64,000 bases of DNA, taken from positions 140,566-204,565 of the forward strand of contig CAVQLA010000014.1 of the NCBI GenBank assembly GCA_963713285.1. Reading direction: 5' to 3'. Below are positions 36,001 to 61,639 of this stretch, piece by piece (position 1 is the first letter of the stretch; every line of letters starts with the position of its first letter). A program made the translations under genes and the position numbers. The notes beneath the pieces were generated by a model. The model was not told the origin of the DNA. It did no database searches and saw nothing but the letters and a program-made list of their open reading frames with translations. This DNA is from an uncultured Chloroflexia bacterium (GTDB lineage: Bacteria; Chloroflexota; Limnocylindria; Limnocylindrales; CSP1-4).

Positions 36001-39000
36001 CCGAGAAGAGGATCCGGTTGGCCAGGCGCTGGAAGAGATGGGCTTCGTCGCTCTCGATCCCCAGGTGATGCAGCTGGACCTGGGCCTGCGTCCACGCGAG
36101 GGTCGCCGCCCGCTCGAACGTGGCAGCCTCGCGGTACTTGTCGGCCAGGTCCAGGACCTGCTCGCGGGACTCGGCGACGACCGTGGAGAAGATCGCGTGG
36201 GCGGTCGCGCCCGGAGCGAGCCTGACCCGGCAGCGGAGGCTGAAGATCGGGTCCAGCACCGGGCCGACCGTGTTGGAGAGCGGACGCCCGTCGATCACGG
36301 ACACCGGCGAGCGGACCGACCGGCCCCGGCCCAGGAAGCGGGCGCGATCCGTCTCGTACTGCACGACCCCGTCCGCCTCCCCCTCGACCGCCGCGACATG
36401 CGCGGCCCAGATCGGCTGCTCGTCGCTGGATCGCGGACGGCGGGTCGCCAGGAGGGCGCCGATCTCGGGGGCGAACTCCGTCTGCACGAACAGGTTCTGG
36501 AACGCCGGGTGAGCGACATCCGCCGCCTGGGGCGCGAGGACGATCTCCGCGTAGGACGTCAGCTCGACCTCGCGAGCCTGCGAGCCGAGATTGGTCAACG
36601 AGACGCGGCGGATCTCCGCGTCGTGCTCCGTCGACACGACGATGGTCAGGCCGGTCGCGATGGAGCCGTCCCGACGCGCGAACTCGGCATGCTCCTCCGA
36701 GTAGGTGACCTCGTAGCTGTCCGCCTCGGCGCCGCTGGGCTGGTGCGTCGCGGACCAGACTGCGCCGGTCTGCATGTCGCGCAGGAAGAGGTAGCTGCCC
36801 CACGAGTCGCGTGTCACGTCTTCGCGCCACCGGGTGACGGCCATGTCGCCCCAGCGGCTGTAGCCGGATCCCGCTGCCGTCACCATGACCGCGTACCGCC
36901 CGTTCGAGAGCAGGTGCGAGCGCGGGATTGCGTCGTGGGGCGAGGTGAAGCGCCGGACGACCGGCGGCACGAGCTCGCGCACGTCGGCGGCGCTCTTCAC
37001 CTCTTCCGCCCGCGGCCGCGCCACGAGCACGTCGCGCGGCATCCGCTCCTGGAGCAGCAGCTCCGTGGCCTCGACGACCGGGTCGGCGTGGAAGCGGTCC
37101 ACCATCACGCGGTTGTTGAGGACGTTGCCGAGCGCAACCAGCGCCATCCCCTGGTGGTGCGCCATGTAGCTCTTGACCACCGCCACCGACTCGCCCTCGG
37201 GCAGCCGTCGCGCCGTGTAGTCGAGCGCCTCACGGAATCCGTACCGCCCGCCTGCCCCGGCCTTCGTCAGCCGGGTGAAGTTCCGGACCGCGGCCCCGGG
37301 GTCGACCATCGCCGCAAGGGCGGTCGCGTACGGCGCCACGACCACATCTTCGCTCAGGCCCCGCTTCAGGCCGAGGCCGGGCACCCCGAAGCCCGAGTAC
37401 TGGTACGTCTGCGCGAGGTCGCGCGCGTTGAACGCCGATTCGGAGATGCCCCATGGCACCCCGAGCTCCGCGGCGTAGCTCATCTGGCGCGCCACGACGA
37501 GCTCGTACGTGTGGTCGAGCAGGCTGTTGGCCGGAGCGCGCATGACGAGGGCGGGCATGAGGTACTCGAACATGGACCCCGACCACGAGATGAGGGCCGA
37601 GCCACGGCCGACGGGCGTCAGCGCGCGGCCGAGCCGGAACCAGTGGTCCGGCGCGACATCGCCCTTGGCGATCGCGAGGAAGCTCGCGAGGCGGGCCTCG
37701 GAGGCGAGGAGGTCGTAGTAGCTCGGATCCAGCGTGCCGTCCCGGACCCTGAACCCGATGGAGAAGAGCTTGCGGGTCGGGTCGAACAGGAAGCTGAAGT
37801 CCATCTCCCGGAAGAGCTGCTGGGCCCGGTCGGCGATCGCCTGGAGCCGTCGGACGAGCGTCGCCGCGGCCGGCGATCCTTCGCCGGGCTGCCGGTCCGG
37901 TGGATCGGACAGCTCGGCGATCGTCGGGAAGGCATCCACCGGTGCCAGGGGCCGCAGCAGCGCGAGATCCCGGACGTGGCTGCTCACTGACGCCCGGGCC
38001 GCCTCGGCCCATGTCACGAGATCGCCCTCCTGGCCCTCCTCACGCTCCGCGGTCAGGGCCGCGGCGACGTCCGAGAGGGTCCGGGCGTGGGCGGAGAGCT
38101 CGTCCAGGCGTGCCTCCCAGGCTTCGGGCGAGGCGGGGACGACGGAACCGGCCTCGGCGAGCGGCGCGAGGGCTTCGGCGAGCTGCCGCCGGGTGAGCGT
38201 CTGGCTTCGCCGGTCGTCGCCGATCGCGCCGGCAGCCTGGCGGGCCAGCGCGACCCCGTCGCCGATCCCGGCCAGCGCCGCCGCGACCGGAAGGGGCTGG
38301 TCGATCATCTGGCGGCAGGCATTCGAGAGCGCGAGCAGGTGGCCGGCGAGATTGCCGCTGTCGACCGACGACACGTACTCGGGCTCGAGCCGGTGCAGGT
38401 CGCGGGTGTCGTACCAGTTGTAGAGGTGCCCGCGGAACCGCTCGAGCCTGCCGATGGTCGAGAGGGTCGCCTCCAGGCGCTCGACCATCTCCAGCGTCCC
38501 GATCCAGCCGAGGTCGCGGGCCGTCACGGTCGCCAGCAGGTACATGCCGATGTTCGTCGGCGAGGTGCGATGCTCGACGACCGGCCGGGGATCGTCCTGG
38601 AAGTTGTCCGGCGGCAGCGCGTGATCCTCCGGGCCCACGAAGGTCTCGAAGAACCGCCAGGTCCGGCGCGCGATCAGGCGGAGTGCCCCGACCTCGGCCG
38701 CCGAGAGCTGCTGCGCAGCCGATTCGGGGGGCGGCAGGCTGACCCGGTGGGCGACGAGCGGCGCGACCAGCCACAGGACGACGAACGGTGCGGCGATCCA
38801 GGCCGCGCCCGGCTTGAGGGCGAGGACGAGCACGCCGGTGGCGATCGCGAGCGCGACGCCGCCCGCCATCTGCCGGTAGAACCCGGCGAGGTCGAGGTCG
38901 CGGCTGGCCGTGGCCTGCGCGGCGGTCATCCATTCGAGCAGGTTCCGCCGGGTGACGTACACGCGCGCCAGGGTTCGCAGGATCGCGTCGCCCATCAGCC

Positions 39001-41740
39001 ACGCCTGGTGGGCCAGGAACGTGAGGCCGAGGCCCACGTGGGCCGCGGCAAGCGCGACGTCCTCGCCCAGGGCTCGCAGGTGGCTGCGCTTGGAGATGCC
39101 CTGCCGTTGCGGCAGCAGCCCACCCAGGACGGGCAATGCCGCGGGGACGATCACCGACGCCAGGACGAACGCGGTCCAGGCGCCGGCCGAGACGGACGGG
39201 AGCGTCCAGGCCGCGACGAGCGTGGCCAGCGTGAGCGGGGCGGACAGCGTCCGGCGCAGGTTGTCGACCATCTTCCAGCGCGCGATGCCGGGGATCGAGC
39301 CACGCGGTCGCCGGCCCGTGGCGTCGCGGGCGCGGCCGAGGATCCACGGCAGGAGCTGCCAGTCGCCCCGCGCCCATCGGTGCTGGCGGGACGACGCGAC
39401 CAGGTAGTCGGAGGGGAACTCGTCGAAGAGCTCGACGTCGGTCACCAGCCCCGCCCGGGCGAAGGTGCCCTCGAACAGGTCGTGGCTCAGGAGCGCGTTC
39501 TCGGGAACCCGGTCCGCCATCGCAGCCCCGAAGGCGTCGAGGTCGTAGATCCCCTTGCCCGTGAAGCTCCCCTCGCCGAACAGGTCCTGGTAGACGTCGG
39601 AGACGGCCGATGCATACGGGTCGATCCCGGCCGGCCCGGAGAAGATCCGCTGGAAGCGCGATCCTCCATGCTCCGCCGGGAGCGTCGAGGTGATCCGCGG
39701 CTGGAGGACGCCGTAGCCCTGGGTCACCCGGCCGGCCCGCGCATCGAACGACGCGTGGTTGAGCGGATGGGCGATCGTCCCCACCAGGCGCCCCACCGCG
39801 CCCCGGGGCAGCCGGGTGTCGGCGTCGAGCGTGACGACATAGCGCACGTCCGTCGGCGGGGTCGACGCGGCCCGCCCCGTCGTGAGGATGCCGGTGGTCG
39901 CGGAGCCGCGCAGCAGCGCATTCAGCTCCAGGAGCTTGCCGCGCTTGCGCTCCCAGCCCATCCAGCAGCCCTCGGCCTCGTTCCACGTGCGATTCCGGTG
40001 GAACAGCAGGAACCGGGCGCCTCCCCCGGGCGCCTCCCCGTGGCGCTCGTTGAGCCGGTCGATGGCCGCCGCTGCCGCCGAGAGGAGCTCGTCGTCGCCG
40101 GGGACGTGCTCGGTCGGGGCGTCGAGCCAGTCCGAGAGCAGCGCGAAGCGCAGGTCGCCCTCGCGGTTGCCCAGGTAGTGGACCTCCAGGCCGTGGACCT
40201 GGGCCTCGACGTCCGCTTCGCCGGTGAGGAGCATCGGCACGACGACGAGGGTCCGCAGCCGGACCGGCACGCCGTCGTCCAGGTCGAGCCGGGGCAATGC
40301 CTTCGGGCCCAGCACGTTCGTGACCACGCGGTTGACGACGGCGATGGCGACGTCGGAGGCCGGGCCGAGCGCGAGGATCGCGATCACGACGATGCCGACA
40401 CCCGCGGCGCCTCCGTCCCAGGACAGCAGGATCGGCACGGCCAGGATCAGCGCCGTCACCGCCGCGAACGTCCCCAGGTAGCCGAGGGCTCCGGCTCGCA
40501 CATAGGCGCGCCGCAGCCTGGCTCCCCTGGGCACCCGAACGTGGAGGGCGCGTTCGAACGCGGAGCGGCCGTCCGAGATGAGGTAGTAGCCGGGCTCCCG
40601 GCGTCGACCCGCCAGGGCAGGCTCGTCGTCGCCGGCCGTCGTTGCGGCGTCCGCCATCTCCACGGCCAGCCGGGCGACCTCGACCTCGGTGAGGCCGGAG
40701 CCCCGGGCCAGCACCTCCACGGCGTGCCGGTAGCGATCGCGCGTCGCGAAGTCCATCTCGCCGAACGGACCTCGCGCGCGCAGGACGTCGTCGACCAGGC
40801 TGACGCTCTCGACGAACTCGGCCCAGTCGAACCACGAGATGAGGCGCATGCTCGTGATCACGTTCCGGACCGTCACGTTCATCGTCGCCTGGCGCTGGTG
40901 CTCCAGGCGGACCATCTCCTCGACGGTGGTCCCCGGGGCCGCGAGGAGCTCCTCCAGCCCGCGGAGGGCGGGGGTGACCGCCGGGTCCTGCTCGCGCAGG
41001 CGCTGGAAGAGCTGGACGCGGGCCGCCGTGGGAAGCCCCGTCCGCGCGAGCCGCCGCAGCGACGCCCCCGCGACCTCCGGGCTGTCCTTGCCGAGGCCGA
41101 GGAGGCCGTCGGCGAGCTTGTCTGCCTTCTCGCGCGCCGCTCGGCTGCGCACGATCTGCTCGGCGAGGCGGCGGAGGTTCTCGACCAGGAGGATGCGGAT
41201 GCTGATCGCGATCGCCCACAGCTCGCCGATCGTCAGCGGCTCCACCTCCTGGTAGCTCCGCACCATGCGCCGCAGGCTCTCGGGGTCGAACCGGCTGTCC
41301 GTGTGGGCGATGTAGGCCCAGGCGAGGCCGAGGACCCGCGGGTAACCGGCGAGATGGCCGTCGGCCAGCTTGGGGAGCTCGCGGTAGTAGTCCGGGGGAA
41401 GGTCGTCGCGGATCTCGCGGAGCTGCTCGTCGACGATGGGGAAGTTGTCGACGAGCCATTCGGCGGCCGGCGTGATCGCCCGCTCGTCCTTGATCGCCCG
41501 GGCCAGCACGCGGTACGCGTCGAGCAGGACGCGGCCGTTGTCGGCGATGCGGGGCCCGACGGCCTGCCCCCGGCCGGGCGTGTCCGTGACCGCCTGGGCG
41601 GCGGCCAGGGTCTGGGCGTGCTGCTCCAGCCGCTCCACGCTGAAGAGCTCCGCGAGGATCGGCTCCTCGAGCTCGGCATCCGGGCGAGCTCGTCCGCGAT
41701 CGCGACCGGGCAGGGATCCGAGGGGCTGGTTCGATCTCAT
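33080..41740 (-). CDS. ndvB: Cyclic beta-1,2-glucan synthase (GT84 glycosyltransferase + GH94 phosphorylase domains), 2886 aa
   Basis: N-terminal multi-TM GT region with the QHRW motif (SSRQHRWARGDWQLLPW). C-terminal GH94 / cellobiose-phosphorylase-like region (alpha/alpha toroid, GDWNDGMNRVG). Size and domain order match Cgs/ChvB/NdvB. Confidence 0.85.
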   Translation of the reverse strand: MRSNQPLGSLPGRDRGRARPDAELEEPILAELFSVERLEQHAQTLAAAQAVTDTPGRGQAVGPRIADNGRVLLDAYRVLARAIKDERAITPAAEWLVDNFPIVDEQLREIRDDLPPDYYRELPKLADGHLAGYPRVLGLAWAYIAHTDSRFDPESLRRMVRSYQEVEPLTIGELWAIAISIRILLVENLRRLAEQIVRSRAAREKADKLADGLLGLGKDSPEVAGASLRRLARTGLPTAARVQLFQRLREQDPAVTPALRGLEELLAAPGTTVEEMVRLEHQRQATMNVTVRNVITSMRLISWFDWAEFVESVSLVDDVLRARGPFGEMDFATRDRYRHAVEVLARGSGLTEVEVARLAVEMADAATTAGDDEPALAGRRREPGYYLISDGRSAFERALHVRVPRGARLRRAYVRAGALGYLGTFAAVTALILAVPILLSWDGGAAGVGIVVIAILALGPASDVAIAVVNRVVTNVLGPKALPRLDLDDGVPVRLRTLVVVPMLLTGEADVEAQVHGLEVHYLGNREGDLRFALLSDWLDAPTEHVPGDDELLSAAAAAIDRLNERHGEAPGGGARFLLFHRNRTWNEAEGCWMGWERKRGKLLELNALLRGSATTGILTTGRAASTPPTDVRYVVTLDADTRLPRGAVGRLVGTIAHPLNHASFDARAGRVTQGYGVLQPRITSTLPAEHGGSRFQRIFSGPAGIDPYASAVSDVYQDLFGEGSFTGKGIYDLDAFGAAMADRVPENALLSHDLFEGTFARAGLVTDVELFDEFPSDYLVASSRQHRWARGDWQLLPWILGRARDATGRRPRGSIPGIARWKMVDNLRRTLSAPLTLATLVAAWTLPSVSAGAWTAFVLASVIVPAALPVLGGLLPQRQGISKRSHLRALGEDVALAAAHVGLGLTFLAHQAWLMGDAILRTLARVYVTRRNLLEWMTAAQATASRDLDLAGFYRQMAGGVALAIATGVLVLALKPGAAWIAAPFVVLWLVAPLVAHRVSLPPPESAAQQLSAAEVGALRLIARRTWRFFETFVGPEDHALPPDNFQDDPRPVVEHRTSPTNIGMYLLATVTARDLGWIGTLEMVERLEATLSTIGRLERFRGHLYNWYDTRDLHRLEPEYVSSVDSGNLAGHLLALSNACRQMIDQPLPVAAALAGIGDGVALARQAAGAIGDDRRSQTLTRRQLAEALAPLAEAGSVVPASPEAWEARLDELSAHARTLSDVAAALTAEREEGQEGDLVTWAEAARASVSSHVRDLALLRPLAPVDAFPTIAELSDPPDRQPGEGSPAAATLVRRLQAIADRAQQLFREMDFSFLFDPTRKLFSIGFRVRDGTLDPSYYDLLASEARLASFLAIAKGDVAPDHWFRLGRALTPVGRGSALISWSGSMFEYLMPALVMRAPANSLLDHTYELVVARQMSYAAELGVPWGISESAFNARDLAQTYQYSGFGVPGLGLKRGLSEDVVVAPYATALAAMVDPGAAVRNFTRLTKAGAGGRYGFREALDYTARRLPEGESVAVVKSYMAHHQGMALVALGNVLNNRVMVDRFHADPVVEATELLLQERMPRDVLVARPRAEEVKSAADVRELVPPVVRRFTSPHDAIPRSHLLSNGRYAVMVTAAGSGYSRWGDMAVTRWREDVTRDSWGSYLFLRDMQTGAVWSATHQPSGAEADSYEVTYSEEHAEFARRDGSIATGLTIVVSTEHDAEIRRVSLTNLGSQAREVELTSYAEIVLAPQAADVAHPAFQNLFVQTEFAPEIGALLATRRPRSSDEQPIWAAHVAAVEGEADGVVQYETDRARFLGRGRSVRSPVSVIDGRPLSNTVGPVLDPIFSLRCRVRLAPGATAHAIFSTVVAESREQVLDLADKYREAATFERAATLAWTQAQVQLHHLGIESDEAHLFQRLANRILFSDPSLRPSGALLARNERGAPGLWAHGISGDLPIVMVRIDELEDLDIVRQLLRAHEYWRLKLLDVDLVILNEHGATYAQNLHDSLEALVRTSRSTLAHEGQPGRGGVHILRGDQLSSEDRTLLQAAARAVLLSRRGTLADQVIRLERPGPSARPPAPPPSRESGSDAAAPRPELEFFNGLGGFADGGREYVTMLGPGQATPAPWLNVIANPSFGFLVSESGAGYTWSGNSRENQLTPWSNDPVTDPASEAIYVRDDESGDLWSPTIQPIRRDASTYIARHGAGYSRFEHLHGGIHLDLVQFVPLDDPVKISVLTIENRSGRTRHLSVTAYAEWALGTSRGAGAARIVTALEPESGALLARNPWNIDFGSRVAFLDLGGRQAAWTADRTEFLGRNGSPERPAALGRGSRLRGAVGAGLDPCAALQTSFELANGARTQVLVLLGEADDAAAAAELVRRTRAADHQASLHRVATFWDDTQGTVQVRTPDRSMDILLNRWLIYQALACRLWARTAFYQAGGAYGFRDQLQDVVALVTTGRDLAREHLLRAAAHQFVEGDVQHWWHPPSDRGVRTRISDDRLWLPYAVDRYLAVTGDTSVLDETVPYLEGPALQPDQADAYFEPDPSSASASLFDHCAAALDRSLAVGAHGLPLIGSGDWNDGMNRVGAEGRGESVWLAWFLHTVLAAFAPIAEARGDRPRAERWRARMKSLRRALERHGWDGDWYRRAFFDDGTPLGSAQNVECRIDSIAQSWAVLSGAADPAHAERAMAAVEEYLIRRGDGLVLLFTPPFDHSDVDPGYVKGYLPGIRENGGQYTHGAIWSVLAYAALGDGDKAGELFSILNPINHASTRAGVHRYKVEPYVMAADVYTEPPHVGRGGWTWYTGSAGWMYQAGVEGILGFRLRGTTLHVDPCIPRAWPSYEMDFRYRSARYEIVVENPNGVSRGVASSELDGQVLAGGGAAIPLVDDGATHRVRVVLG

Positions 41741-41927: not shown

Positions 41928-42965
41928 TCAGGGAGCGGGCGTCGCCTCGGGCGTCGGTGTCGGCGTCGGGTCTGGCGTGGGTGACGGTGTCGTGTCTGGT
42001 GGCGGCGTCGGTGACGGCGTCGCGTCTGGAGTCGGTGACGGCGTCGCGTCTGGAGTCGGTGTCGGCGTCGGGTCTGGTGTCGGCGTCGGGTCTGGTGTCG
42101 GCGTCGGTGTAGGTGTTGGCGTCGGGCGAGGTCTCGGCGTCGGCCGAGGCGTCGGTGTCGGTGTCGGTACTGGGGTCGGCGGCAGCGTCGCCTCCGGTGT
42201 CGGCGTCGGGGTCGGGTCCGGGGTGACCTCGGGCGTGGGGGTCGGCTCCGGGGTGAGCTCGGGCGTCGGGGTCGGCTCGGGCGAAGGGGTCGCCTCGGGT
42301 GTCGCCTCGGGTGTCGGCGTCACCTCCATCGACGGAGGGGGCGTGACCGTGTCGGGCCCCGTCCCCGGGTTCTGTTTCGGGTCCGGCGCCGGCGTGGGAT
42401 CGGGCGTTGTGACGGGCATCTCGCCGGGGGCCCTCGAGCCGTCCTGGGATCGCAGCTCGCAGTTCTCGAAGCGGTCCTTCGCCGTGCCGTAGCAGGCGTC
42501 CGCGTTCCCGGCGCCGCCGTCGAGCAGGTCCCTTCCGTTGCCGCCCTCGATCATGTCGTCGTCGCCGCCACCGTGGAGCGTGTCGGCGCCCTCGCCGCCC
42601 AGCAGCACGTCCTTTCCGTTCCCGCCGACTAGGCTGTCGTTGCCCTCCCCGCCGACCAGGCAGTCCTTGCCGTTGCCGCCGTCGATCGTGTCGTCGCCGC
42701 CGAGCCCGAAGACGAGCGCGCCCCCGTTGCCGGCGACGAGGTCATCGTCTCCCGACGTTCCGACGATGACCTGGGCGAACTCCATGTCGGCGCATTCGGG
42801 CGGCACGGCCGGCGTGGGAGTCGGTTCGGGAATCTGCGCGATGAGCTGCAGGGCGAACGTGATCGAGTCCGAGAAGTAGGCCGACGAGCTCCCGATGCCC
42901 ACGGCCAATCCCGCGACGACCAGGCCGGCTACCGCGAGGCGCAGGTGGCGTGGGCCTCTACGCAT
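41928..42965 (-). CDS. Secreted SipW-cognate protein with RTX-like Gly/Asp calcium-binding-type repeats and a Pro/Thr-rich tandem-repeat C-terminal tail
   Basis: N-terminus ...[18 protein letters not shown] (AYFSD-type SipW-cognate signal). Middle region [59 protein letters not shown]. The C-terminal ~150 aa are (T/P)PTP(E/D)(A/P)TP repeats. AAGGAG RBS. Confidence 0.7.
41931..42380. repeat. Tandem degenerate short repeats (GTCGGTGTCGGCGTCGGG-like units) encoding the Pro/Thr-rich tail
   Basis: Visible periodic ggcgtcggtgtcggcgtcgggtctgg... units. This is a coding low-complexity repeat, not a CRISPR array (no spacers, no constant repeat). Confidence 0.7.
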
Positions 42966-43503
42966 CGGGGTTCGGCTCCTTGCCGCTCACCGGGACGGCG
43001 GCCGCGCGTCGACGACGGATCGTGCTCACCTCGTCACCGATGGTGCGCACCTGCCCGAGGATGAGCACACCGAGCGTCGCGATGAGAACGCCGAAGAACA
43101 CGATCGGTTGGTGCAACACATAGAGCAGGTATCCGAGGTAGGGGACGCTGAGCCGGACGGTCCCGAGGACGTCCGAGGACGAGCGGGGCGTCACGTCGAC
43201 GCTGTTGTTCGCGTCGCCCTTTGTCTGGAATGACGCCGATCCGACGGCGACTACGCGATGGGTGACGATGCCCTCGGTCGCATCATGGAACATCACGACC
43301 GCCCCGACCTCGGGGACCAGCTCGGTCCGGTCGACCACGACGACGCTGCCGAGGTGGATGGCGGGCTCCATGCTCCCGCCGCTCACCACGCGCACGTCAT
43401 ATGGCGAGATGCGCGGCAGCGCGAGCACGACGACGACCGCGACGAGCAGCGCCAGGAAGGCGCCCTGGATCGCCGACCGGGTGAAGCGCAACACACCGCG
43501 CAC
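42958..43503 (-). CDS. sipW: Type I signal peptidase of the SipW subtype (archaeal/ER-like S26B)
   Basis: Catalytic SGGSMEP motif preceded by a TM ([15 protein letters not shown]). GTG at 43503 preceded by GAGGAG; the ORF-track start at 43563 is probably too long. Confidence 0.8.
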
Positions 43504-43575
43504 GGTTCCGACTCCTCGTGGTCCGACTGCGGGAAGGGCGGGATGGCCCGCCCCTCCCTTCACGACGGACGCGGC

Positions 43576-44511: not shown

Positions 44512-45213
44512 TCAGAGAGCCGGAGCGCCGTCCGGGGCGGCCACTTCAACCAGTCGGGCGAGCCCCTCCTCGTCGAGGACGATGATCCCGCCGCCCCGTT
44601 CGCGCTTCACGAGGCCGTCTGCTTCCAGTCGGCTCAGCGTCCGGTACATCATCACGCGGCTCGTGCCGATCATGGCCGCCAGGTCGGCGCGCAGCGCGAC
44701 CGGGTGGGGCGTGTCGAAGATCACCTTCCCGTACCGAAGGAGAATGGCGGCCATCCGCTGGCGCGCGCTCGCGAAGGACCGTTCGTCGAGCCGCACATTG
44801 AGGACCACCGCGAAATCCGAGGCCAGGTCGAGCAGGCCCACGGCCAGCCCGGCGTCCTGGAGCGCGAGCTCGCGCATGAAGACCGGATCCCACGTCGCCC
44901 ACGTCCCGTCGCTCAACGCGACGAGCTCGTACAGCGCGTCGGCGGTCGGGTCGCTGATCGAGCGGAGTCCGCCGAAATAGCCAGGGCCCGCGATCAGCGC
45001 TGCGTACACCTGTCCCGTCTCCACCACGCGGCGGTTCATGACGTGCCCGTCGAGCACGACGAACGGGGGCAGCTGGATCCCCCTCGAGTGCAACAGGTCA
45101 CGGCGAGAGAAGGCCTGCAGGCGAGCCCCCCGCTCCAGGCGACGCAGCGTGCTGGCTTCCATGCCTGGGAGAAGCCGTGCCAGGTGATCACCAACTGGTT
45201 CGATCGCACCCAT
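44512..45213 (-). CDS. Crp/Fnr-family transcriptional regulator (cNMP-binding domain + C-terminal HTH)
   Basis: cNMP-binding beta-roll (FSRRDLLHSRGIQLPPFVVLDGHV...) and HTH RADLAAMIGTSRVMMYRTLSRLEADGLV. ATG at 45211-45213. Confidence 0.8.
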   Translation of the reverse strand: MGAIEPVGDHLARLLPGMEASTLRRLERGARLQAFSRRDLLHSRGIQLPPFVVLDGHVMNRRVVETGQVYAALIAGPGYFGGLRSISDPTADALYELVALSDGTWATWDPVFMRELALQDAGLAVGLLDLASDFAVVLNVRLDERSFASARQRMAAILLRYGKVIFDTPHPVALRADLAAMIGTSRVMMYRTLSRLEADGLVKRERGGGIIVLDEEGLARLVEVAAPDGAPAL

Positions 45214-45585
45214 GGAGGCCCTCTTCGAGTACGGCCGATGGCACCGAGCCTGGATTCCGACTCGCAGGTGAACTTTGACATTGCCGGCGTTGGAAAGAAA
45301 GGTACGTTGCGATCTACGACGGTCCCGCCGCCTTCGTGCCCGGGCGCGATGGGAACGCCGCGCGCCAGGCTCCACGGGCCTGGGGTCCCGCAGGGGGGGA
45401 GCCTGGCGCGGCGAGGCGAGATGCGCGAGGAGGTGGTCGCGGGCGTGGCATCGGGAACAGCTGTCCGGGTCGTGCGGGCCAGGGGCGACGCTCGCCGGGC
45501 AAGATCGCAGGCGCCCGACCCGACTCAGGCCGGGCCTGCATTTGCGGATGTCTTGCCGGTGTCTTCCACCGTGGGAGGATGAGCC

Positions 45586-46380
45586 ATGATTCCCGGCCTC
45601 GTGAGCGACCCGGAGGTCGAGGCGCACCGCGCGCTGGTGCTCCACGATCGCCCGCTGGTCGTGGACCTGATCGAGCTGACGCTGAACCACGGCATCTTCG
45701 TCGTCCGGGCCGCGAGCAGCCTGGCAGACGCCGAGGCGATCCTGGACGAGTGGCGCCCGCACCTCGCCGTCATCGACATGGACCACGACGACAGCACGGC
45801 GCTGCTCCAGCGTATCGGCGCCTCGAACACCTTGACCCGCAGCGTGACGCCGGCCCTGGGCCTGACCCGGCGCGGCGACCTCAAGACCAAGCTGCGGGCC
45901 TTCGAGCTCGGCGTCGACGACATCCTGACGGTGCCGTTCTCACCTGAGGAGCTCCTGGCCCGGTCGATCGTCATCACCCGTCGCGCCTCAGGGACCGACC
46001 GACCCATCGTGCCGACGATCAGGCTCGGCGAGATCGAGATCGACATCCTCAGCCGCCAGGTGCGGGCCGGCGACTCGGTCATCCACCTGAGCGGCATCGA
46101 GCAGAGCCTGCTGTACCTCCTCGCGAGTCGCGGCGGACGCGTCGTCACGCGCGAGGAGATCCTCGACGCCGTCTGGGGCACCGACTTCCTGACCGAGAGC
46201 AACATCGTGGATCGCCACGTTCGCAGCCTGCGGGTCAAGCTGCAGAACGACTACCGGCATCCGCGCTTCATCGCCACGGTCCCCGGCCAGGGGTACCGTT
46301 TCATCCCCACCTTCACGAACACGGGCTGGGGTGCCGGGGTCGAGCCGGTGGGGCGGCCGCCCGAGCGGCGTCGCAACTGA
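45586..46380 (+). CDS. OmpR-family response regulator (orphan; receiver domain with atypical acidic pocket)
   Basis: Receiver VIDMDHDD...K in LKTKLRAFELGVDDILTVPF. Winged-helix DNA-binding domain ...VIHLSGIEQSLLYLLASRGGRVVTREEILDAVWG...GQGYRF. No histidine kinase adjacent. Confidence 0.8.
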   Translation: MIPGLVSDPEVEAHRALVLHDRPLVVDLIELTLNHGIFVVRAASSLADAEAILDEWRPHLAVIDMDHDDSTALLQRIGASNTLTRSVTPALGLTRRGDLKTKLRAFELGVDDILTVPFSPEELLARSIVITRRASGTDRPIVPTIRLGEIEIDILSRQVRAGDSVIHLSGIEQSLLYLLASRGGRVVTREEILDAVWGTDFLTESNIVDRHVRSLRVKLQNDYRHPRFIATVPGQGYRFIPTFTNTGWGAGVEPVGRPPERRRN

Positions 46381-46517: not shown

Positions 46518-46534
46518 ATCCCCCGGACATGACG
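46518..46534. promoter_or_regulatory. Perfect 8-N1-8 palindrome CATGACGG-A-CCGTCATG (copy 1)
   Basis: Read directly from the sequence. Lies 138 nt after the response-regulator stop and about 140 nt upstream of the 29-aa peptide ORF. Confidence 0.5.
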
Positions 46535-46674
46535 GACCGTCATGACGCGCCGATGGCGGCGCGACACACTGGCATCGCGAAGGCGTCGTCGCGCTGAGGC
46601 ATCACGCACGTGAGCGCGATCCCCACCCCGACGACCGGCGGAACGGCCTTGCCAGTCCGGAACGGGAGATCGTC

Positions 46675-46764
46675 ATGAATACCAGAAGCGGTGGCATCGG
46701 GATCATCGGCGTGATCGTCATCGTGGTGGTGATCCTCTTCGTGCTCGGCGTCATCAACCTGTGA
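46675..46764 (+). CDS. Small hydrophobic peptide (29 aa, single TM; type-I-toxin-like or small membrane protein)
   Basis: ATG preceded by GGGAG. MNTRSGGIGIIGVIVIVVVILFVLGVINL*. Codon usage is atypical for this genome (AAT, AGA, AGC). Not in the ORF track because of its length. Confidence 0.4.
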   Translation: MNTRSGGIGIIGVIVIVVVILFVLGVINL

Positions 46765-46889
46765 GCACAGGGGGCGGCCGCGTGTCGCCGTGGCTCGGCC
46801 TGAGAGTGCCGGGTTTCGGGCCGAGCCTCGGGCGCGCCGAATGATCGCTGGAACGCGGCATCGTGCCCCGCCCGCCGGAGGATCGTGAA

Positions 46890-47783
46890 ATGTCGTTCAA
46901 CCCCGGCGCAAAGCTCGATCCATCTCAGGTCGAGGACGTCCGCGGGTCGCGGATCGGGAGGCGTGGACTGACCGTCGGCGGCGGCGGGATCGGGCTCGTC
47001 GTCGCCCTCGTGTGGGTCCTCCTGGGAGGCAGCCCGTCGACCGGCGGGACACTCGGCAGCCTGGTCGACCAGACGGTCGGCGGTGGCGCCGGCGAGCCGG
47101 CGCCGGCCAGCACTGCCCTCGCCAACGAGTGCAGGACCGGTGCCGACGCGAACGCCCGGGACGACTGCCGGATCGTCGGCTACATCAACAGCATCCAGGC
47201 CTACTGGACCAGCGAGTTCGCCGCCTCGGGCCAGCGCTACGTCGGGGCGAAGACCACCTTCTTCACCGAGCAGATCAGCACCGGCTGCGGCGTCGCGTCG
47301 TCGGCCAGCGGTCCGTTCTACTGCCCGAGCGACACGTCCGTCTACATCGACCTCGGCTTCTTCGACGAGCTGCGCTCGAAGTTCGGGGCCCAGGGAGGCC
47401 CGTTCGCGCAGGCATACATCCTGGCTCATGAGTACGGCCACCACGTCCAGGATCTCGTCGGAACGCTCTCGGGCGGGACAAGCCAGGAGGGGGAGGCCGG
47501 GCAGTCGGTCCGGACCGAGCTCCAGGCCGACTGCTACGCTGGCGTCTGGGCGAACCACGCGGCCGCGACCAACTACCTCGTGCCGCTCACGGGCGCGGAC
47601 ATTGCCGACGCCCTCGATGCCGCGAGGGCCGTCGGAGACGACCGGATCCAGAAGGAGATGCAGGGCCAGGTCAACCCCGAGACCTGGACCCACGGCTCGT
47701 CCACCCAGCGCCAGAAGTGGTTCACGATCGGCTACGAGTCCGGGTTGCCGGATCGCTGCGACACGTTCAGCGGTAGCCCCTGA
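46890..47783 (+). CDS. Putative neutral zinc metallopeptidase (YpfJ-like), membrane-anchored
   Basis: N-terminal TM ([16 protein letters not shown]), HEYGHH zinc-binding motif, and conserved Cys pairs. Confidence 0.8.
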
Positions 47784-47846
47784 GACCAGGAGGGACGGAG
47801 CGGCCGACGAGCTGGACGGGCTCGTCGGCCGCCGATGTCGGGACGA

Positions 47847-48233
47847 CTACGCCGGGACGAAGTGGTCGGCCTCGTCGCCGTCGGCCTCGGCCTTCGTGCG
47901 GTGGATCGTGCCCGGCGCGTGCTGCGGCGGTGCATACACCGTGTAGAGGCGGAGGTCGCCGGACCCGGAGTTGACGAAGTTGTGGCGTGTTCCCGCCGGG
48001 ACGTGGACGAGACGGTCGGGTCCCACCGGACTCTCCTGGCCATCGAGAGTGGCGACTCCCTCACCCTGGACGAACGCGAGGACCTGGTCCACGTGCTCGT
48101 GGGTCTCCTCGCCGATCTCGCCCCCGGGCGGGATGCTCATCACGACGACCTGGGCGTTCGCCCCCGTCGAGAGGACCTGTCGGAAGAAGGCGTTCGCCTT
48201 TGCGGCTGCGACGATGTCGACGTTGAATGCCAT
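47847..48233 (-). CDS. Cupin-domain protein
   Basis: Cupin motifs G(X)5HxH-like (ETHEHVDQVLAFVQGEG) and GxxxxxPxGxxH (VHVPAGTRHNF). ATG at 48231-48233 preceded by GAGAGG. Confidence 0.65.
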   Translation of the reverse strand: MAFNVDIVAAAKANAFFRQVLSTGANAQVVVMSIPPGGEIGEETHEHVDQVLAFVQGEGVATLDGQESPVGPDRLVHVPAGTRHNFVNSGSGDLRLYTVYAPPQHAPGTIHRTKAEADGDEADHFVPA

Positions 48234-48370
48234 GTTGCACCTCTCGTGGTGGGCCGCCGACGCACGGTCGCCACCTTCAGGACGAAGTCCCGCGCCATCC
48301 GGCAACCGGTGACGCTCGGCTGGATGGGTGGACAGACAGGGCCGGCCCGGCCACGGTCACAGGTGTCGGG

Positions 48371-48778
48371 TCAGGCCGGCTGGCGCCGGAAGATGCCGAC
48401 GGCCCACAGCACGATGAGCTCGATGACCGTCCAGCCGACGAGGGCCACGACGGCGGCGACGTCGAGCGTCGATCCCGCGGCGTTGAGGGAGTCCGTCCGG
48501 AGGATCCCCTCGAACGGGGCGACGAAGACCTGGCTGACGTCGAGGATGCCAGCCACGAGGGCGTTCGCCTCCCGCGCGTCCAGGAGCAGCAGGACGATCC
48601 GCGCCCCGATGACGAGCTGGATCAGCCCGAAGACGAGGACGACGATCCGCCGGGCCATCTCGGAGCCCCCGGGGCCCGTCCTGGTGATGCGCCGGCTGTC
48701 GGTCCGCACGGTTTCCTGGCCCGCGGGGGTGATGGGTGCCTGGGTGACGACCGTCCGGTCGACCTGGTCGATGGCCAT
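48371..48778 (-). CDS. YggT-family small membrane protein
   Basis: ARIVLLLLDAREANALVAGILDVSQVFVAPFEGILRTDSL...LDVAAVVALV matches the YggT pattern (R.LL.W....N.....I...T.P.L.P.R..IP...G.DLSP). ATG at 48776-48778. Confidence 0.65.
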   Translation of the reverse strand: MAIDQVDRTVVTQAPITPAGQETVRTDSRRITRTGPGGSEMARRIVVLVFGLIQLVIGARIVLLLLDAREANALVAGILDVSQVFVAPFEGILRTDSLNAAGSTLDVAAVVALVGWTVIELIVLWAVGIFRRQPA

Positions 48779-48874
48779 GGTGTTCTCCGTGTGCCTGTGG
48801 GGCATCCGGGGGAAGCGGGTGTACCCGCACCCCGTGGGATGCTGCTCCCGAGTGTCACCCGGAGCTGACCAATC

Positions 48875-48895
48875 GTCATGACGGCCCGTCATGAC
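48875..48895. promoter_or_regulatory. Near-perfect palindrome GTCATGACGG-C-CCGTCATGAC (copy 2 of the CATGACGG-N-CCGTCATG motif)
   Basis: Read directly from the sequence. Lies in the divergent intergenic region between the YggT-family gene (-) and the GlsB/YeaQ gene (+). Confidence 0.5.
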
Positions 48896-49004
48896 ACGGC
48901 GGGTCTCCCACGGGACACTGGCAGTCGCCTCGACCCTCCGCCGGGGGTGTTCTGCTGAAGCCGAGCACCGACGCGGCGGCGGAAGGCGGGATCCGGAGGG
49001 CCAC

Positions 49005-49271
49005 ATGGGGATCATCGCCTGGATCGTCGTCGGCGCGATCGCCGGCGTCATCGCCACCTTCATCACGGGGACCCGGGCGGGCATCGTGATGACGGTCGTT
49101 CTCGGCATCGTCGGAGCGCTCGTCGGCGGCTTCCTTGCCGGTGCCTTGTTCGGCGTCAAGGATCCGACCGGCTTCAACCTCGAGACGATCGTGGTGGCCG
49201 TGATCGGCGCGGTCATCGTCGTCTTCGTCGCCGGCCTGCTGGGCCTCGGTGGGGGCCGAAGGACGGCTTGA
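49005..49271 (+). CDS. GlsB/YeaQ/YmgE-family stress membrane protein (transglycosylase-associated protein)
   Basis: MGIIAWIVVGAIAGVIATFITGTRAGIVMTVVLGIVGALVGGFLAGALFG. GGAGGG RBS. Confidence 0.8.
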   Translation: MGIIAWIVVGAIAGVIATFITGTRAGIVMTVVLGIVGALVGGFLAGALFGVKDPTGFNLETIVVAVIGAVIVVFVAGLLGLGGGRRTA

Positions 49272-49306
49272 CCCTCATCGACAAGACGGTTTGACCCTCA
49301 TCGACA
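49267..49306. promoter_or_regulatory. Perfect 16-bp direct repeat TTGACCCTCATCGACA x2 (23-bp spacing) immediately upstream of csbD
   Basis: Copies at 49268-49283 and 49291-49306. Each contains a -35-like TTGAC. The element ends 24 nt before the csbD ATG. Confidence 0.5.
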
Positions 49307-49329
49307 GCAGACGCAGGAGAACGTTCGAC

Positions 49330-49527
49330 ATGGCAGACGAGCACACCAAGGGCGCCATCAGCAAGGCCACGGGCAAGGTCGAGGAAGGGCTCGGCAAGCT
49401 GACCGGCAACAAGGAGCAGGAGCTCCACGGCAAGGTCAAGCAGGTCCAGGGGGCAGGGCAGCAGACCCTGGGCGACATCCAGGACGCCGTCCGGGGGCCC
49501 AAGGACAAGGACAAGGAAGAGGCCTGA
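49330..49527 (+). CDS. csbD: CsbD-family general stress protein
   Basis: MADEHTKGAISKATGKVEEGLGKLTGNKEQELHGKVKQVQGAGQQTLGDIQDAV... AGGAGA RBS. Confidence 0.8.
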   Translation: MADEHTKGAISKATGKVEEGLGKLTGNKEQELHGKVKQVQGAGQQTLGDIQDAVRGPKDKDKEEA

Positions 49528-49600
49528 CCGCCTGGCCAGCGCATGACCGGCTGCCAGCGACAGGCGTCATGCCCACGATGCCACCCGCGGAGGCACGCGA

Positions 49601-49807
49601 ATGCCCGCGATTCGAGCTCCTGAGGCGTTTCGACCCTCGATCCTGGCTCCGATCGCCGGCGAGCCTGTCGGGCTCGCCGGCCCCGCCCTCCTGCTGATCG
49701 CGTCGGTCGCGCTGCGCAGCCTCGCCCTCATCGCGATCGCGGGGCTTCTGATCCTCATGGTCCTCCCTGCGGTGCTCGCTGTGGCTGCCGAGGCGACCGC
49801 CGCCTGA
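49601..49807 (+). CDS. Possible small membrane protein (68 aa)
   Basis: ATG preceded by GGAGG. Two hydrophobic segments (LLLIASVALRSLALIAIAGLLILMVLPAVLAVAA). No similarity was recognised, so coding status is uncertain. Confidence 0.3.
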   Translation: MPAIRAPEAFRPSILAPIAGEPVGLAGPALLLIASVALRSLALIAIAGLLILMVLPAVLAVAAEATAA

Positions 49808-50027
49808 GCCGCGCGCAGCAGGACGAGCCGAGAGCCGAGTCAACGTCGACGAGAACGACCACGCTCGACGAAGGAAGACGACGCGGCAGCCCGCATCGTG
49901 AGGCTGCGCATCTGCCGCGATGAGCACGTTGGTGGAGCCCAACCAGATGACGGGGCGTAATGACACCCCGTCCGTCGCGGACGACAGTGGACGAACGAAC
50001 GGCGGACCGCCCGTCTCTTCGATCGGG

Positions 50028-50097: not shown

Positions 50098-50355
50098 ATG
50101 ATTGACAAGCCACCGCCGGCGCCCGTGATGCCCGGCGACTTCGCGTCCGGGGAGCGGACCGACACCCCGACACCGGAGGAAGCGCGGGAGGAGGCCCTCC
50201 AGGGCGACTTCGCCTCTGGCGAGCGGTCCGAGCTCCCGACACAGGAGGAAGTGCTCGAGGAGGGCCTCCACGGCGACTTCGCCGCTGGCGAGCGCACGGA
50301 GCCCCTCACCCCGGAGGACGACACTGCGGGGACCTTCGCCGACACCAGCCGCTAG
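50098..50355 (+). CDS. Small acidic repeat protein (85 aa; three 23-aa GDFA(S/A)GER...PT.EE repeats), predicted disordered
   Basis: AAGGAGAGACAG precedes the ATG. Reads MIDKPPPAPVMP, then GDFASGERTDTPTPEEAREEALQ / GDFASGERSELPTQEEVLEEGLH / GDFAAGERTEPLTPEDDTAGTFADTSR. Confidence 0.5.
   Translation: MIDKPPPAPVMPGDFASGERTDTPTPEEAREEALQGDFASGERSELPTQEEVLEEGLHGDFAAGERTEPLTPEDDTAGTFADTSR
50134..50340. repeat. 3 x 69-bp tandem direct repeat (ggcgacttcgc...ggcgagcg...) inside the 50098 gene
   Basis: Repeat units start at 50134, 50203 and 50272 (period 69 bp). Confidence 0.8.
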
Positions 50356-50778: not shown

Positions 50779-51531
50779 GTGCCGGATCAGCGTCCCGGGC
50801 GGACGGCAGCCCGACCACATGTCATCCGGATGGTTCTCGTCGAGAAGCACGCCCTGGTGCGCGCCCTGCTGCGGGAGATCGTCGGGGGGCAGCCCGACAT
50901 CGACATCGTCGCCGAGGTCGCCGACGTCGAGGACGCGATCGAGATCATCCGGGACGAGACACCCGATGTCGTCCTCGTCGATACGGACGTACCGATCTCC
51001 CTGGTGGTCCCGGCGGTCCAGCGGCTGAAGCGTGAATGCCCGGGCTCGCCGGTCGTCCTCCTGGGTCATCGCCGCAACGACGACGATCTCTTCGCGGCAC
51101 TTCAGGCTGGAGTCGCTGCCCACGTTCTCGACGACGCCCGGCCGAGTGAGCTTCTCCGTACCATCCGCGCCGCGGCCGCGGGCGAGTATCCGATCGACGC
51201 CGCCGTCGCGGCGCGGCCGGTCGTGGCGCGCCACGTGCTGGAGGCATTTCGGGACGCGTCGCTTCTCGGCGAGGTCGCGTCGGCCGACCTCGCGGCAACC
51301 GCCTTCACGCCGCTGTCGCCACGCGAGATGGAGGTCCTGGAGGCGATCGCGCAGGGCCTGACGAACAGGGCCGTCGGCGAGGCGCTGTCGATCAGCGAGC
51401 GCACCGTCAAGAACCACGTGTCGAGCATCCTGCGCAAGCTTGCGGTCAACGGCCGCACGCAGGCCGTGCTGTTCGCGCTGAAGAAGAGCTGGATCGGCAT
51501 CTCGGACGCGCCGCCGCTCCGTCGCAACTGA
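50779..51531 (+). CDS. NarL/LuxR-family response regulator (orphan; receiver with VEKH in place of the usual DD pocket)
   Basis: Receiver RMVLVEKHALVRALL...VVLVDTDVP. C-terminal LuxR HTH LSPREMEVLEAIAQGLTNRAVGEALSISERTVKNHVSSILRKL. The start is at 50779 or ATG 50830. Confidence 0.8.
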   Translation: MPDQRPGRTAARPHVIRMVLVEKHALVRALLREIVGGQPDIDIVAEVADVEDAIEIIRDETPDVVLVDTDVPISLVVPAVQRLKRECPGSPVVLLGHRRNDDDLFAALQAGVAAHVLDDARPSELLRTIRAAAAGEYPIDAAVAARPVVARHVLEAFRDASLLGEVASADLAATAFTPLSPREMEVLEAIAQGLTNRAVGEALSISERTVKNHVSSILRKLAVNGRTQAVLFALKKSWIGISDAPPLRRN

Positions 51532-55210: not shown

Positions 55211-55822
55211 GAGGCGCCCCCCTTGAAGCGTGAGGCGGGTCGGACTCGCCATTGGCCCCGCGCGACGATCTAGGCGACCGTGTTGGGACGCCGCGCTGGT
55301 GGGAACCCAGAGTCCCCGTGCCCCCCACCTTGATGCCGGAATGTTCCGCCGGGTTCATGAGAGCGTCATGAGAACGTGACTCCCCGGGCCGACCGGGCCG
55401 GGAGGATCGGGCACGCGGGCGCGGAGCGGGTCAGCATCCCGACGATCTCGTCGAGAGAGCGCGGTGTTCGCCGCGCAACGAGCCGGGCGATCCGCCAGGG
55501 ATCTCCTCGCGTCCGGGCGAGCCGGTGCGGATCAAGGCGCGGCCACAGAAGGAGGGCCTGTCGGCGGCAGGCGCGTGCGGCCTCGCGACGGGACACCGAG
55601 CCGGCGTCGATCCGCCAGCGGATCGGCATCCCGAGCGCGCCGAGGTCGCCCCCACGGTTGATCGCTGGACGTGTCGGCGGGGCGAGTCCGGTGGACGGGA
55701 TCGGCTGACCTGCGGTCACGGCGGGCATCTCCGGAGCGGCTCGTCGCCCGCCGGTCGCCTCGGGGGGCGGTCGAGGTTCACGATGATCGAGGAGCCGGGA
55801 TGTGACGACGATGAGAGCCGGC

Positions 55823-61033: not shown

Positions 61034-61568
61034 CGCCGAGCTCCTTCCGCAGCCGGTCGAGCAGCCGGGAGAGCCGTGTCCGCACGCCCGACGGGGAGAT
61101 GCCGAGGACCGGGCCCAGCTCGGTCGAGTCCAGGTCCGCCGCGTAGCGGAGGGCGACGAGCGCCCGGTCCTCCGGCTTCAGGTGGCGCAGGGCGTTGGCG
61201 AGGTCGACGTGGTCGATCCCGACGGTGGGGTCGGTCCCCGGGGATGGGTCGGCCGCGACCTTGAGCTCCACGACCCCGTGCCGCTGCTCCCGCTTGAGGA
61301 ACTTGCGCGCCTCGTTGGCGGCGACCGCGACGAGCCAGGGTCGAAGGCGCTCCGGGTCACGCAGCGAGGGGAGCTTCCGCCAGGCGATCCACCAGGCCGC
61401 CTGGGCGGCGTCCTCAGCCAGGCTCTCGTCGCCGCAGATGACGTAGGCGACCCGGACCAGGTCGAGGTGGTAGGCACCGACGATCCGGGCGAAGGCGAGC
61501 TCATCGCCCGCGATGGCGCGCTCCACCGTGGTGGCGATCGCGGCGCTGTCGAGGGCGAGGCTCGTCAT
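61026..61568 (-). CDS. ECF-type RNA polymerase sigma factor, paralogue of the 30851-31396 gene
   Basis: MTSLALDSAAIATTVERAIAGDELAFARIVGAYHLDLVRVAYVICGDESLAEDAAQAAWWIAWRKL...LRHLKPEDRALVALRYAADLDSTEL. ATG at 61566-61568. Overlaps the anti-sigma start by 8 nt. Confidence 0.85.
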   Translation of the reverse strand: MTSLALDSAAIATTVERAIAGDELAFARIVGAYHLDLVRVAYVICGDESLAEDAAQAAWWIAWRKLPSLRDPERLRPWLVAVAANEARKFLKREQRHGVVELKVAADPSPGTDPTVGIDHVDLANALRHLKPEDRALVALRYAADLDSTELGPVLGISPSGVRTRLSRLLDRLRKELGDD

Positions 61569-61639
61569 GACATAGAGATACCGGCAGGGCGCCCAGGTGT
61601 CCCATCGTGCTTCGGGGCGGGCCCGGGCGCCAGTGCCGT

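Follow-up and report, generated by a model that had tools for sequence, protein, structure and literature searches.

A lineage-restricted palindromic promoter element in Limnocylindria-like Chloroflexota and its candidate OmpR/PhoB-type regulator

The subject of this analysis is a 17-bp palindrome that recurs between genes in a 64-kb stretch of DNA (hereafter the window; contig CAVQLA010000014.1, assembly GCA_963713285.1) from an uncultured Chloroflexia bacterium. The window is 73% G+C, and its nearest relatives are the Chloroflexota metagenome-assembled genomes (MAGs) that carry the palindrome. The copies lie in a locus (Table 1) that begins with two divergent regulatory genes, one encoding an orphan, atypical regulator of the OmpR/PhoB family and the other a distant member of the Crp/Fnr family, and continues with genes for a short hydrophobic peptide, a metallopeptidase, a 136-aa membrane protein, GlsB/YeaQ-type and CsbD proteins and an acidic repeat protein. 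Judging by its distribution in the window and in related genomes, the palindrome very probably binds a regulator protein and belongs to a fixed-geometry promoter that serves small membrane and stress-protection genes.

The pattern CATGACGGNCCGTCATG has two exact matches in the window (sites 1 and 2), where 0.02 would be expected, and none of 100 dinucleotide-preserving shuffles of the window gave two or more. The original prediction, made from the letters of the window, had claimed two perfect 17-bp copies, and the exact count bears this out. It had also rightly set the first copy in the gap that separates the 29-aa open reading frame (ORF) from the OmpR-type regulator, whose gene ends at 46380, though at coordinates (46518-46534) that were 10 nt too low, and it had correctly extended the second copy to a 10-1-10 palindrome. 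Both exact copies are real, but the inventory was incomplete: a scan with a position-weight matrix (PWM), built from independent sites, yielded three sites and four promoters. Site 3 is the sole extra place found when the window is searched with the palindrome pattern and three mismatches are allowed, and a variant of its type (...CGTAATGAC) also stands upstream of the orthologous gene in a related locus. Site 2 scored 41.7 bits on the plus strand and 41.0 bits on the minus strand, and its ortholog, with both promoters present, was found in another related locus; the position orthologous to site 1 was occupied in a third and in many of the loci anchored on the regulator gene that are described below. 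All palindrome copies in the window are intergenic. The consensus of the element is (C/G)ATGACGg-n-cCGTCATG, with predicted half-sites ATGACGg-n-cCGTCAT, and its half-site spacing, ATGAC-N5-GTCAT (5-N5-5), is centred on a base pair.

Two other places in the window bear some likeness to the element. The stretch 55354-55376, put forward earlier as a related half-site, had no PWM score and turned out to be the junction of two minus-strand genes (TGA stop 55366-55368, ATG start 55356-55358), so we rejected it as unrelated. An isolated self-complementary octamer, GTCATGAC, at 61564-61571 is without a second half-site and without a PWM score, and is probably a chance occurrence.

Table 1. Sites, promoters, candidate regulators and target units in the window (positions count from the first letter of the window).
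Feature	Position	Strand	Description
Second candidate regulator	44512..45210	-	remote member of the Crp/Fnr family, encoded divergently to the OmpR-type gene; HTH_Crp_2 3.4e-13
Candidate regulator	45586..46380	+	orphan atypical OmpR/PhoB-family protein; Pfam Response_reg 4.3e-10 and Trans_reg_C 2.8e-23
Site 1	46528..46544	none	perfect 17-bp palindrome CATGACGGACCGTCATG; 148 nt past the stop of the OmpR-type regulator; PWM 46.0 bits
Promoter 1	46542..46570	+	ATGACG 46542-46547, 17 nt, CACACT 46565-46570; inferred start ~46577
Target unit 1	46675..47783	+	29-aa hydrophobic peptide 46675-46764; YpfJ-type Zn metallopeptidase 46890-47783 (Pfam Zn_peptidase 1.9e-72)
Target unit 2, minus	47847..48779	-	136-aa membrane protein 48779-48371; possibly cupin gene 48233-47847 (Cupin_2 2.4e-15)
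Promoter 2, minus	48851..48879	-	ATGACG 48879-48874, 17 nt, GACACT 48856-48851; inferred start ~48844
Site 2	48877..48893	none	perfect palindrome CATGACGGCCCGTCATG; 10-1-10 across 48875-48895; common to two divergent promoters
Promoter 2, plus	48891..48919	+	ATGACA 48891-48896, 17 nt, GACACT 48914-48919; inferred start ~48926
Target unit 2, plus	49005..49807	+	GlsB/YeaQ-type protein 49005-49271 (Pfam Transgly_assoc); CsbD 49327-49527 (Pfam); 68-aa membrane protein 49601-49807
Site 3	49946..49962	+	degenerate palindrome GATGACGGGGCGTAATG; PWM 36.5 bits
Promoter 3	49960..49988	+	ATGACA 49960-49965, 17 nt, GACAGT 49983-49988; inferred start ~49995
Target unit 3	50098..50355	+	85-aa acidic protein, three GDFAxGER(T/S)E.P..EE repeats; no Pfam match

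Downstream of every palindrome copy, and always equally far from it, stands ACACT or ACAGT. The combined pattern ATGAC-N19-ACACT has three exact matches in the window (promoter 1 and the two promoters of site 2) and one match with a single mismatch (promoter 3), and all four lie at palindromes, with 0.85 expected in the window. The layout common to them consists of a -35-like ATGAC(G/A), made up of the palindrome's last three bases plus AC(G/A) and containing the TGAC core of TTGACA, then a 17-nt spacer and a -10-like (C/G)ACA(C/G)T. The site therefore overlaps a well-conserved -35-like hexamer by 3 bp, and is part of the promoter rather than a free-standing operator. The -10-like hexamer begins 29 bp downstream of the dyad centre in all cases, and with a start assumed about 7 nt past that hexamer the centre would fall at about -41; at site 2 the two promoters are exactly mirror-symmetric about the dyad centre at 48885. 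The PWM scan of the 64 kb returned these four promoters only, with scores of 36-46 bits, and nothing in 10 shuffles; the 3.6 kb that follow the OmpR-type gene contain all of them. A generic scan for sigma-70 promoters and terminators found no match here, which marks the promoter as non-canonical. We also considered the palindrome as an RNA hairpin, of a terminator or a leader, and rejected this because the loop would be of 1 nt, no T-run is present and the element lies upstream of the inferred start; a whole-window Rfam scan had no match at the sites.

Genomes, one for each species, were scanned for the exact pattern; perfect palindromes were required, and at least 120 loci were obtained. The 48 listed loci from Chloroflexota MAGs belong to records named Candidatus Limnocylindrales or Limnocylindria, 'uncultured Chloroflexia' soil bins, and Chloroflexota or Chloroflexi bacterium; taxon labels and the class assignment are those of the public records throughout. 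Among the matches listed, ACACT (with at most one mismatch) stood at the identical offset in 35 of 51 Chloroflexota palindromes and in 3 of 72 from other taxa, the latter being about chance. A relaxed test, which asked for the AC flank and an N-A-N-N-N-T hexamer at that offset +/-1, separated the two groups further (44/51 against 2/72), and by a crude test of ORFs and of G+C at third codon positions (GC3) 41 of the 51 Chloroflexota copies were both promoter-type and non-coding; the exact copies listed from other phyla lay inside genes.

These figures bear on the simplest alternative, namely that the palindrome reflects chance or a restriction-modification bias and plays no regulatory role. Such a bias would agree with the over-representation of TCATGAC in the window (13 occurrences against 4.6 expected, 8 of the 13 at or overlapping the palindrome edges) and with the intragenic copies of other phyla, but it leaves unaccounted for the two exact copies where 0.02 would be expected, their intergenic position, the fixed promoter geometry and the conservation of orthologous positions across species. 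The scatter of a restriction-type motif is excluded by the division between taxa in the relaxed test together with the 41 non-coding, promoter-type copies, and we regard this explanation as effectively refuted. A genome-wide pattern search had been suggested at the outset, with scatter through coding regions named beforehand as the refuting outcome; no such scatter was seen among the Chloroflexota copies listed. The comparison of orthologous promoters, suggested likewise, found the same promoter and the same types of genes in dozens of related genomes. The two copies had initially been thought to define a small regulon, and a regulon does recur, but it is neither small nor local: on this comparative evidence we take the element to be a lineage-restricted promoter type that is class-wide in Limnocylindria-like Chloroflexota.

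A separate sample was assembled with the OmpR-type protein as the query and without use of the motif, and comprised 80 metagenome loci at 79-95% identity, which are close relatives of the window organism and in many cases short. Genes in the loci were called heuristically, by ORF length and GC3. In the 46 unique promoters found downstream of the regulator, columns on which nothing had ever been selected proved to be conserved, with A18 in 43 and C19 in all 46 (the -35 TGAC), and in the -10 region the conserved bases were A (40), C (33), A (36) and T (41). The base at -12 was C in 30, G in 11, A in 5 and T in none, against a T background of 15% (P ~6e-4); the -10 is deliberately non-consensus, never carrying T at this position. 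The flanking columns held about 0 bits, and the information profile was symmetric. Across promoters the spacer was 17 +/- 1 nt long and the position of the operator was invariant.

The presence of a second half-site was assessed on promoters picked out solely by the proximal half together with the -35 and -10 elements, and every site whose selection had used the distal half was set aside. The distal half, ATGACG with at most one mismatch, was retained in 27 of 32 promoters from genome loci and in 26 of 33 from metagenome loci, where chance would give 0.3%, and the second count rose to 30 of 33 when a shift of 1 nt was allowed. Since the distal half is kept in ~80-90% of promoters although it has no promoter role, we predict that the element is a two-half-site protein-binding site, suited to a dimer, and not merely a -35. 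The earlier claim of a dedicated regulator site thus finds comparative support in the conserved distal half, the fixed geometry and the recurring kinds of genes, and we consider it highly likely that a real dimer site is fused to a promoter here and that it marks a lineage-wide regulon.

The same data speak to the possibility that no separate factor is involved and that the element is simply the promoter of an alternative, general-stress sigma factor, with GTCATGAC as its -35 and ACACT as its -10, the palindrome having arisen from overlapping divergent -35s. CsbD, GlsB and other targets do resemble sigma-B-type regulons, the internal bases of the -10 are unusually conserved, and the distal half is missing in a few promoters. 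However, the distal half has no -35 role in the unidirectional promoters that so consistently retain it, sites 1 and 3 are unidirectional yet palindromic, and no sigma gene is linked to the sites. We consider a sigma factor by itself very improbable, though one could still act alongside the dimer. As for the internal arrangement of the dimer site, CATGAC is present both as an inverted repeat and as a direct repeat with 13-bp spacing on the promoter side; the direct-repeat reading, CATGAC...CATGAC, was rejected because it gives no reason for the strong conservation of G12 and T13. Odd-length palindromes are also known from Fur-type 7-1-7 boxes and from the Deinococcus RDRM. Identity with either was rejected, as there is no apparent sequence resemblance and no such regulator is apparent nearby.

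We then turned to the question of which protein binds the site. The OmpR-type protein encoded just upstream of site 1 belongs to a family of thousands of 90%-identity clusters; its closest solved structures are KdpE, PhoP, RpaA and MtrA, and its best NCBIfam match is PhoB (TIGR02154), at 127.8 bits and thus far below the cut-off of 296.2. Among the matches listed, orthologs of it (76-88% identity) were present in 20 of ~49 loci that had been selected on the palindrome, whereas, for an assumed genome of ~4 Mb, a random 8-kb block would contain a given single-copy gene in ~0.2% of cases. In the loci selected on the regulator, a site with at most three mismatches lay no more than 400 nt downstream of the regulator's stop and pointed away from it in 37 of the 64 with enough flank, and a site ~125 nt upstream, in the opposite direction, was found in 7 of 67. 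Sites occurred on either side of the regulator in 36 of 54 loci, and farther off in the same loci at 0.1 per kb. In two loci the promoter stands directly before the gene of the OmpR-type regulator itself. Over the 80 orthologs, conservation of the regulator's DNA-binding domain is 95% or higher, which matches the invariance of the motif. It is because the sites track the OmpR-type gene that we favour its product as the binder, a proposition that we hold, on this genomic association, to be evenly balanced.

The divergently encoded Crp/Fnr-family protein is a rival candidate, whose dimer would be centred near -41.5 in the manner of classical class II activators. Crp/Fnr homodimers bind palindromes at exactly such a promoter position, the use of one dimer for two divergent promoters is well known in this family, and an ortholog of the Crp-like protein (64-87% identity) adjoins the response regulator in 35 of the 80 metagenome loci. 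Yet the Crp-like gene is present in only 2 of the 20 genome loci that contain the regulator, so that the sites follow the OmpR-type gene; none of 20 loci has a site at the 3' flank of the Crp-like gene, and the shared intergenic region contains none either. The odd 5-N5-5 spacing is also at variance with the even spacings that characterised Crp/Fnr members use (TGTGA-N6-TCACA, TTGAT-N4-ATCAA), and in the alignment the recognition helix of the Crp-like protein reads RVMMYR and not RE..xR. Binding by the Crp-like protein is, in our judgement, quite unlikely. Either neighbour had been nominated in the original prediction, and both genes show some association with the sites, which by the comparative counts is far closer for the OmpR-type gene. 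The LuxR/NarL family also binds palindromes, and the window encodes a regulator of this type at 50779-51531; it was rejected as the binder, since no ortholog with at least 40% identity was found in the listed Chloroflexota palindrome loci or in the 80 regulator-selected loci. That some other factor binds the site is unlikely, but less so than binding by the Crp-like protein.

Several features of the OmpR-type protein set it apart from a conventional response regulator. Across the 80 orthologs, the invariant Lys (PhoB K105) is replaced by V, M, T, L or I and is never Lys, PhoB E9 is His in 80/80 and the switch Tyr (Y102) is Ile, with D10, the phospho-acceptor D53 and T83 kept. No histidine kinase gene adjoins the regulator in the window, where its neighbours are the Crp-like gene and the genes for the 29-aa peptide and the YpfJ-type protein, and none was found beside it in the regulator-anchored loci examined. 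As the receiver is without the Lys, control through the regulator's abundance is conceivable, perhaps by way of the divergent Crp-like gene and a conserved intergenic block, and one might equally speculate that a ligand or another modification controls the regulator. The block in question, GT.AACT.TGACATTGC ... GGTA.G.T at 45268-45308, lies between the Crp-like and OmpR-type genes and is common to 30 loci whose surroundings have diverged; it contains TTGACA, with 22 nt to a TA..T element. It differs from the palindrome, and no further palindrome was found in this intergenic region. The block could contain the promoter from which the regulator itself is transcribed, or else bind a different factor, of which the Crp-like protein is a possible example.

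We propose, then, that the palindrome is the predicted site of a dimeric factor in a dedicated promoter class, and that the adjacent atypical OmpR-type regulator activates through it a lineage-wide water- and general-stress regulon, a proposal that we advance as tentative, its chances lying a little short of even. The OmpR-type regulator would bind as a symmetric head-to-head dimer from -49 to -33, directly against the -35 TGAC, and the bound dimer would activate by contact with RNA polymerase at the -35 region, so aiding transcription from a promoter with a -10 that stays away from consensus. One dimer would serve either a single promoter, as at sites 1 and 3, or two mirror-image divergent promoters, as at site 2. 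Site 2 would drive the gene of the 136-aa membrane protein leftwards and GlsB-CsbD rightwards, and site 3 would drive the 85-aa acidic repeat protein.

Whether the bound factor activates or represses is a separate matter. A repressor dimer would occlude the -35 TGAC of an active promoter until stress released it, as in the HspR/HAIR, HrcA/CIRCE and DdrO/RDRM systems. The 3-bp overlap with a well-conserved -35-like hexamer agrees with this, and many bacterial stress regulons are controlled by repressors. On the other hand, repressor operators usually vary in position among the members of a regulon, whereas here the position is invariant; the -10 is systematically non-consensus, with T at -12 in 0/46; and the empty sigma-70 scan fits an activator-dependent promoter better than a strong one in need of silencing. 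Activation is favoured on account of the invariant geometry, the absence of T at -12, the failed sigma-70 scan and the service of two divergent promoters by one site, and we regard it as somewhat more likely than not; repression we regard as unlikely, while still giving it appreciable weight.

Several considerations weigh against the proposed activation by the OmpR-type regulator. Its support is comparative throughout, and the regulator-anchored metagenome loci are those of close relatives and not independent samples. The usual target of OmpR/PhoB regulators is a direct repeat, bound head-to-tail, so that a perfect inverted repeat would be an uncommon site for them. The divergent neighbour in many loci is a gene of the Crp/Fnr family, which classically acts on palindromes centred at -41.5. 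The conserved -35 TGAC could equally be read as a sign of competition between polymerase and factor, that is, of repression, and the conserved A-C-A of the -10 is atypical of housekeeping promoters, so that a dedicated sigma factor may also be involved.

Two known systems lend some further support to the OmpR-type protein as the binder, HP1043 as a precedent and PhoB through the sequence of its pho box. HP1043 (HsrA) of Helicobacter pylori is an atypical orphan OmpR/PhoB regulator that has been modelled head-to-head on a site readable as a direct or an inverted repeat (PMC8345958). The candidate regulator resembles it in being an orphan with a degenerate receiver that presumably acts independently of phosphorylation, and the CATGAC repeats have the same dual legibility as the HP1043 consensus. 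The two differ in motif (ttTAAG-N5-tTTAAg for HP1043), in phylum, in the essential housekeeping targets of HP1043, as opposed to stress genes, and in the experimental demonstration of binding that exists for HP1043. The half-site CCGTCAT agrees at 6 of 7 positions with CTGTCAT, the core of the Escherichia coli pho box (PMC4415409). PhoB is of the same protein family, and its activator site likewise occupies the -35 region; the pho box, however, is a direct repeat with an 11-bp period, whereas the repeat described here is inverted and its half-site differs by one base, none of the targets is of the Pho regulon, and the receiver is without the Lys needed for canonical activation. A PhoB site abuts or replaces the -35, and PhoB acts by contact with sigma region 4.

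GlnR of the Actinomycetota is an orphan, phosphorylation-independent global regulator of the OmpR type. The candidate regulator shares with GlnR its orphan status, a non-canonical receiver and sites at or upstream of the -35, but GlnR has tandem a/b boxes, controls nitrogen metabolism and is of low sequence identity to the protein described here. The element would resemble class II CRP/FNR promoters in a dyad site centred ~41 bp upstream of the predicted start and overlapping the -35, in a core promoter that is probably weak and in divergent pairs on one site; the odd 5-N5-5 spacing, the different half-site, the retained -35 TGAC and the linkage to an OmpR-type gene distinguish the present element from them. 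In gene content, with CsbD, GlsB/YeaQ-type, small membrane, glycine-zipper and hydrophilic repeat proteins, the regulon is like those of sigma-B in Firmicutes, SigF/SigB in Actinomycetota and EcfG in Alphaproteobacteria, but its promoter bears no resemblance to GTTT-N-GGGTAT or GGAAC-N16-CGTT and has a conserved second half-site.

Taken to its full extent, the proposal would be that an atypical, phosphorylation-independent orphan OmpR/PhoB regulator, as a symmetric head-to-head dimer on a perfect inverted repeat centred at -41, can fire two divergent promoters and serves as the master activator of the water and general stress response of Limnocylindria, in place of alternative sigma factors. 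Because the half-site is pho-box-like, this version would include descent from a PhoB-type ancestor with one half-site flipped. We consider it possible rather than probable.

The genes behind the promoter were characterized next. The gene calls of the public source contig include both genes of target unit 1 and those of the plus-strand unit at site 2. Across MAGs the 29-aa peptide (MNTRSGGIGIIGVIVIVVVILF...) is kept at 67-83% identity, in six related loci, and in two of them its ortholog stands behind the same promoter; orthologs of GlsB and CsbD were found behind the same promoter in five loci. The 136-aa membrane protein had been labelled YggT in the original prediction, a label that we did not retain, as the protein has no Pfam or NCBIfam match even at E<=1 (YGGT, PF02325, included); the labels GlsB and CsbD, by comparison, were upheld by Pfam. 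A word-indexed homology search with the 136-aa protein was empty at E<=1e-5, yet tblastn recovered orthologs at 50-65% identity in many of the fetched loci. The cupin gene downstream is possibly co-transcribed with it. The 85-aa repeat protein is conserved in four related loci and stands behind a palindrome promoter in the window and in two of these; its sequence suggests a stress protein of a hydrophilin-like kind that has yet to be characterised.

Upstream of the gene for the 136-aa protein, the leaders are 68-232 nt long. In a comparison that included the window (48780-48850, minus strand) and four other loci, only a subset share GGCATCC...CCGGATGCC and a small GCC-TGAA-GGC hairpin just ahead of the ribosome-binding site. 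These shared elements may be a cis-regulatory RNA.

To describe the regulon more broadly, we sampled ~0.74 Mb of related DNA, a sample biased towards the neighbourhood of the regulator, and obtained 150 unique promoters of at least 25 bits, 109 of them with a callable first gene. The most frequent first gene encoded the 136-aa membrane protein (25 of 109), followed by secreted ice-binding-like proteins (14), GlsB (6), CsbD (4), the GDFAxGER repeat protein (3) and DUF5661 proteins (3). Glycine-zipper, DUF1269 and DUF1775 proteins and many hydrophobic peptides of 25-70 aa also occurred as first genes, as did a sugar-type ABC binding protein, an Nramp transporter and an IclR regulator. This content resembles that of general, osmotic, desiccation and freezing stress regulons, and the families suggest a role in water or general stress protection in Limnocylindria-like Chloroflexota.

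In a full-text literature search, neither this motif nor any aspect of gene regulation in Limnocylindria was found to have been described, and we would class the findings as a putative new factor-site-regulon system of a known type. Limnocylindria, an abundant class among soil Chloroflexota, also have a wide distribution in sediments, permafrost and fens, and we know of no cultured model for them. A sharply defined cis-element together with an unambiguous candidate regulator constitutes a first testable regulatory code for this class, and the motif alone predicts stress-programme genes in any MAG, which makes it of use for MAGs and metatranscriptomes alike. It also links into one response several uncharacterised families, namely the 136-aa membrane protein, the 29-aa peptides, the GDFAxGER repeat protein, DUF5661 and DUF1269. 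Symmetric binding of an inverted repeat by an OmpR-type protein, if true, would be the second well-defined case after HP1043.

A few further observations were made in passing. One contig labelled Candidatus Sulfomarinibacteraceae (DATIUS010000106.1) has the gene of the 136-aa protein, a promoter-type palindrome and a regulator ortholog with 86% identity, and is probably a mis-binned Chloroflexota contig. In the window, ~5 kb from the stress island, a 2886-aa ORF (33080-41740, minus strand) combines GH94 supersandwich and catalytic domains with a glucoamylase-like domain, and resembles a cyclic beta-1,2-glucan synthase/phosphorylase, with a function of the osmoadaptation type. An RTX calcium-binding repeat protein (41928-42965, minus strand) adjoins an S26 signal-peptidase-like protein (42958-43563, minus strand). 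The only Rfam match of the window is a c-di-GMP-II-GAG riboswitch (RF03169) at 28264-28346 on the minus strand, which scored 48.4 bits against a gathering threshold of 40 (E 1.9e-06).

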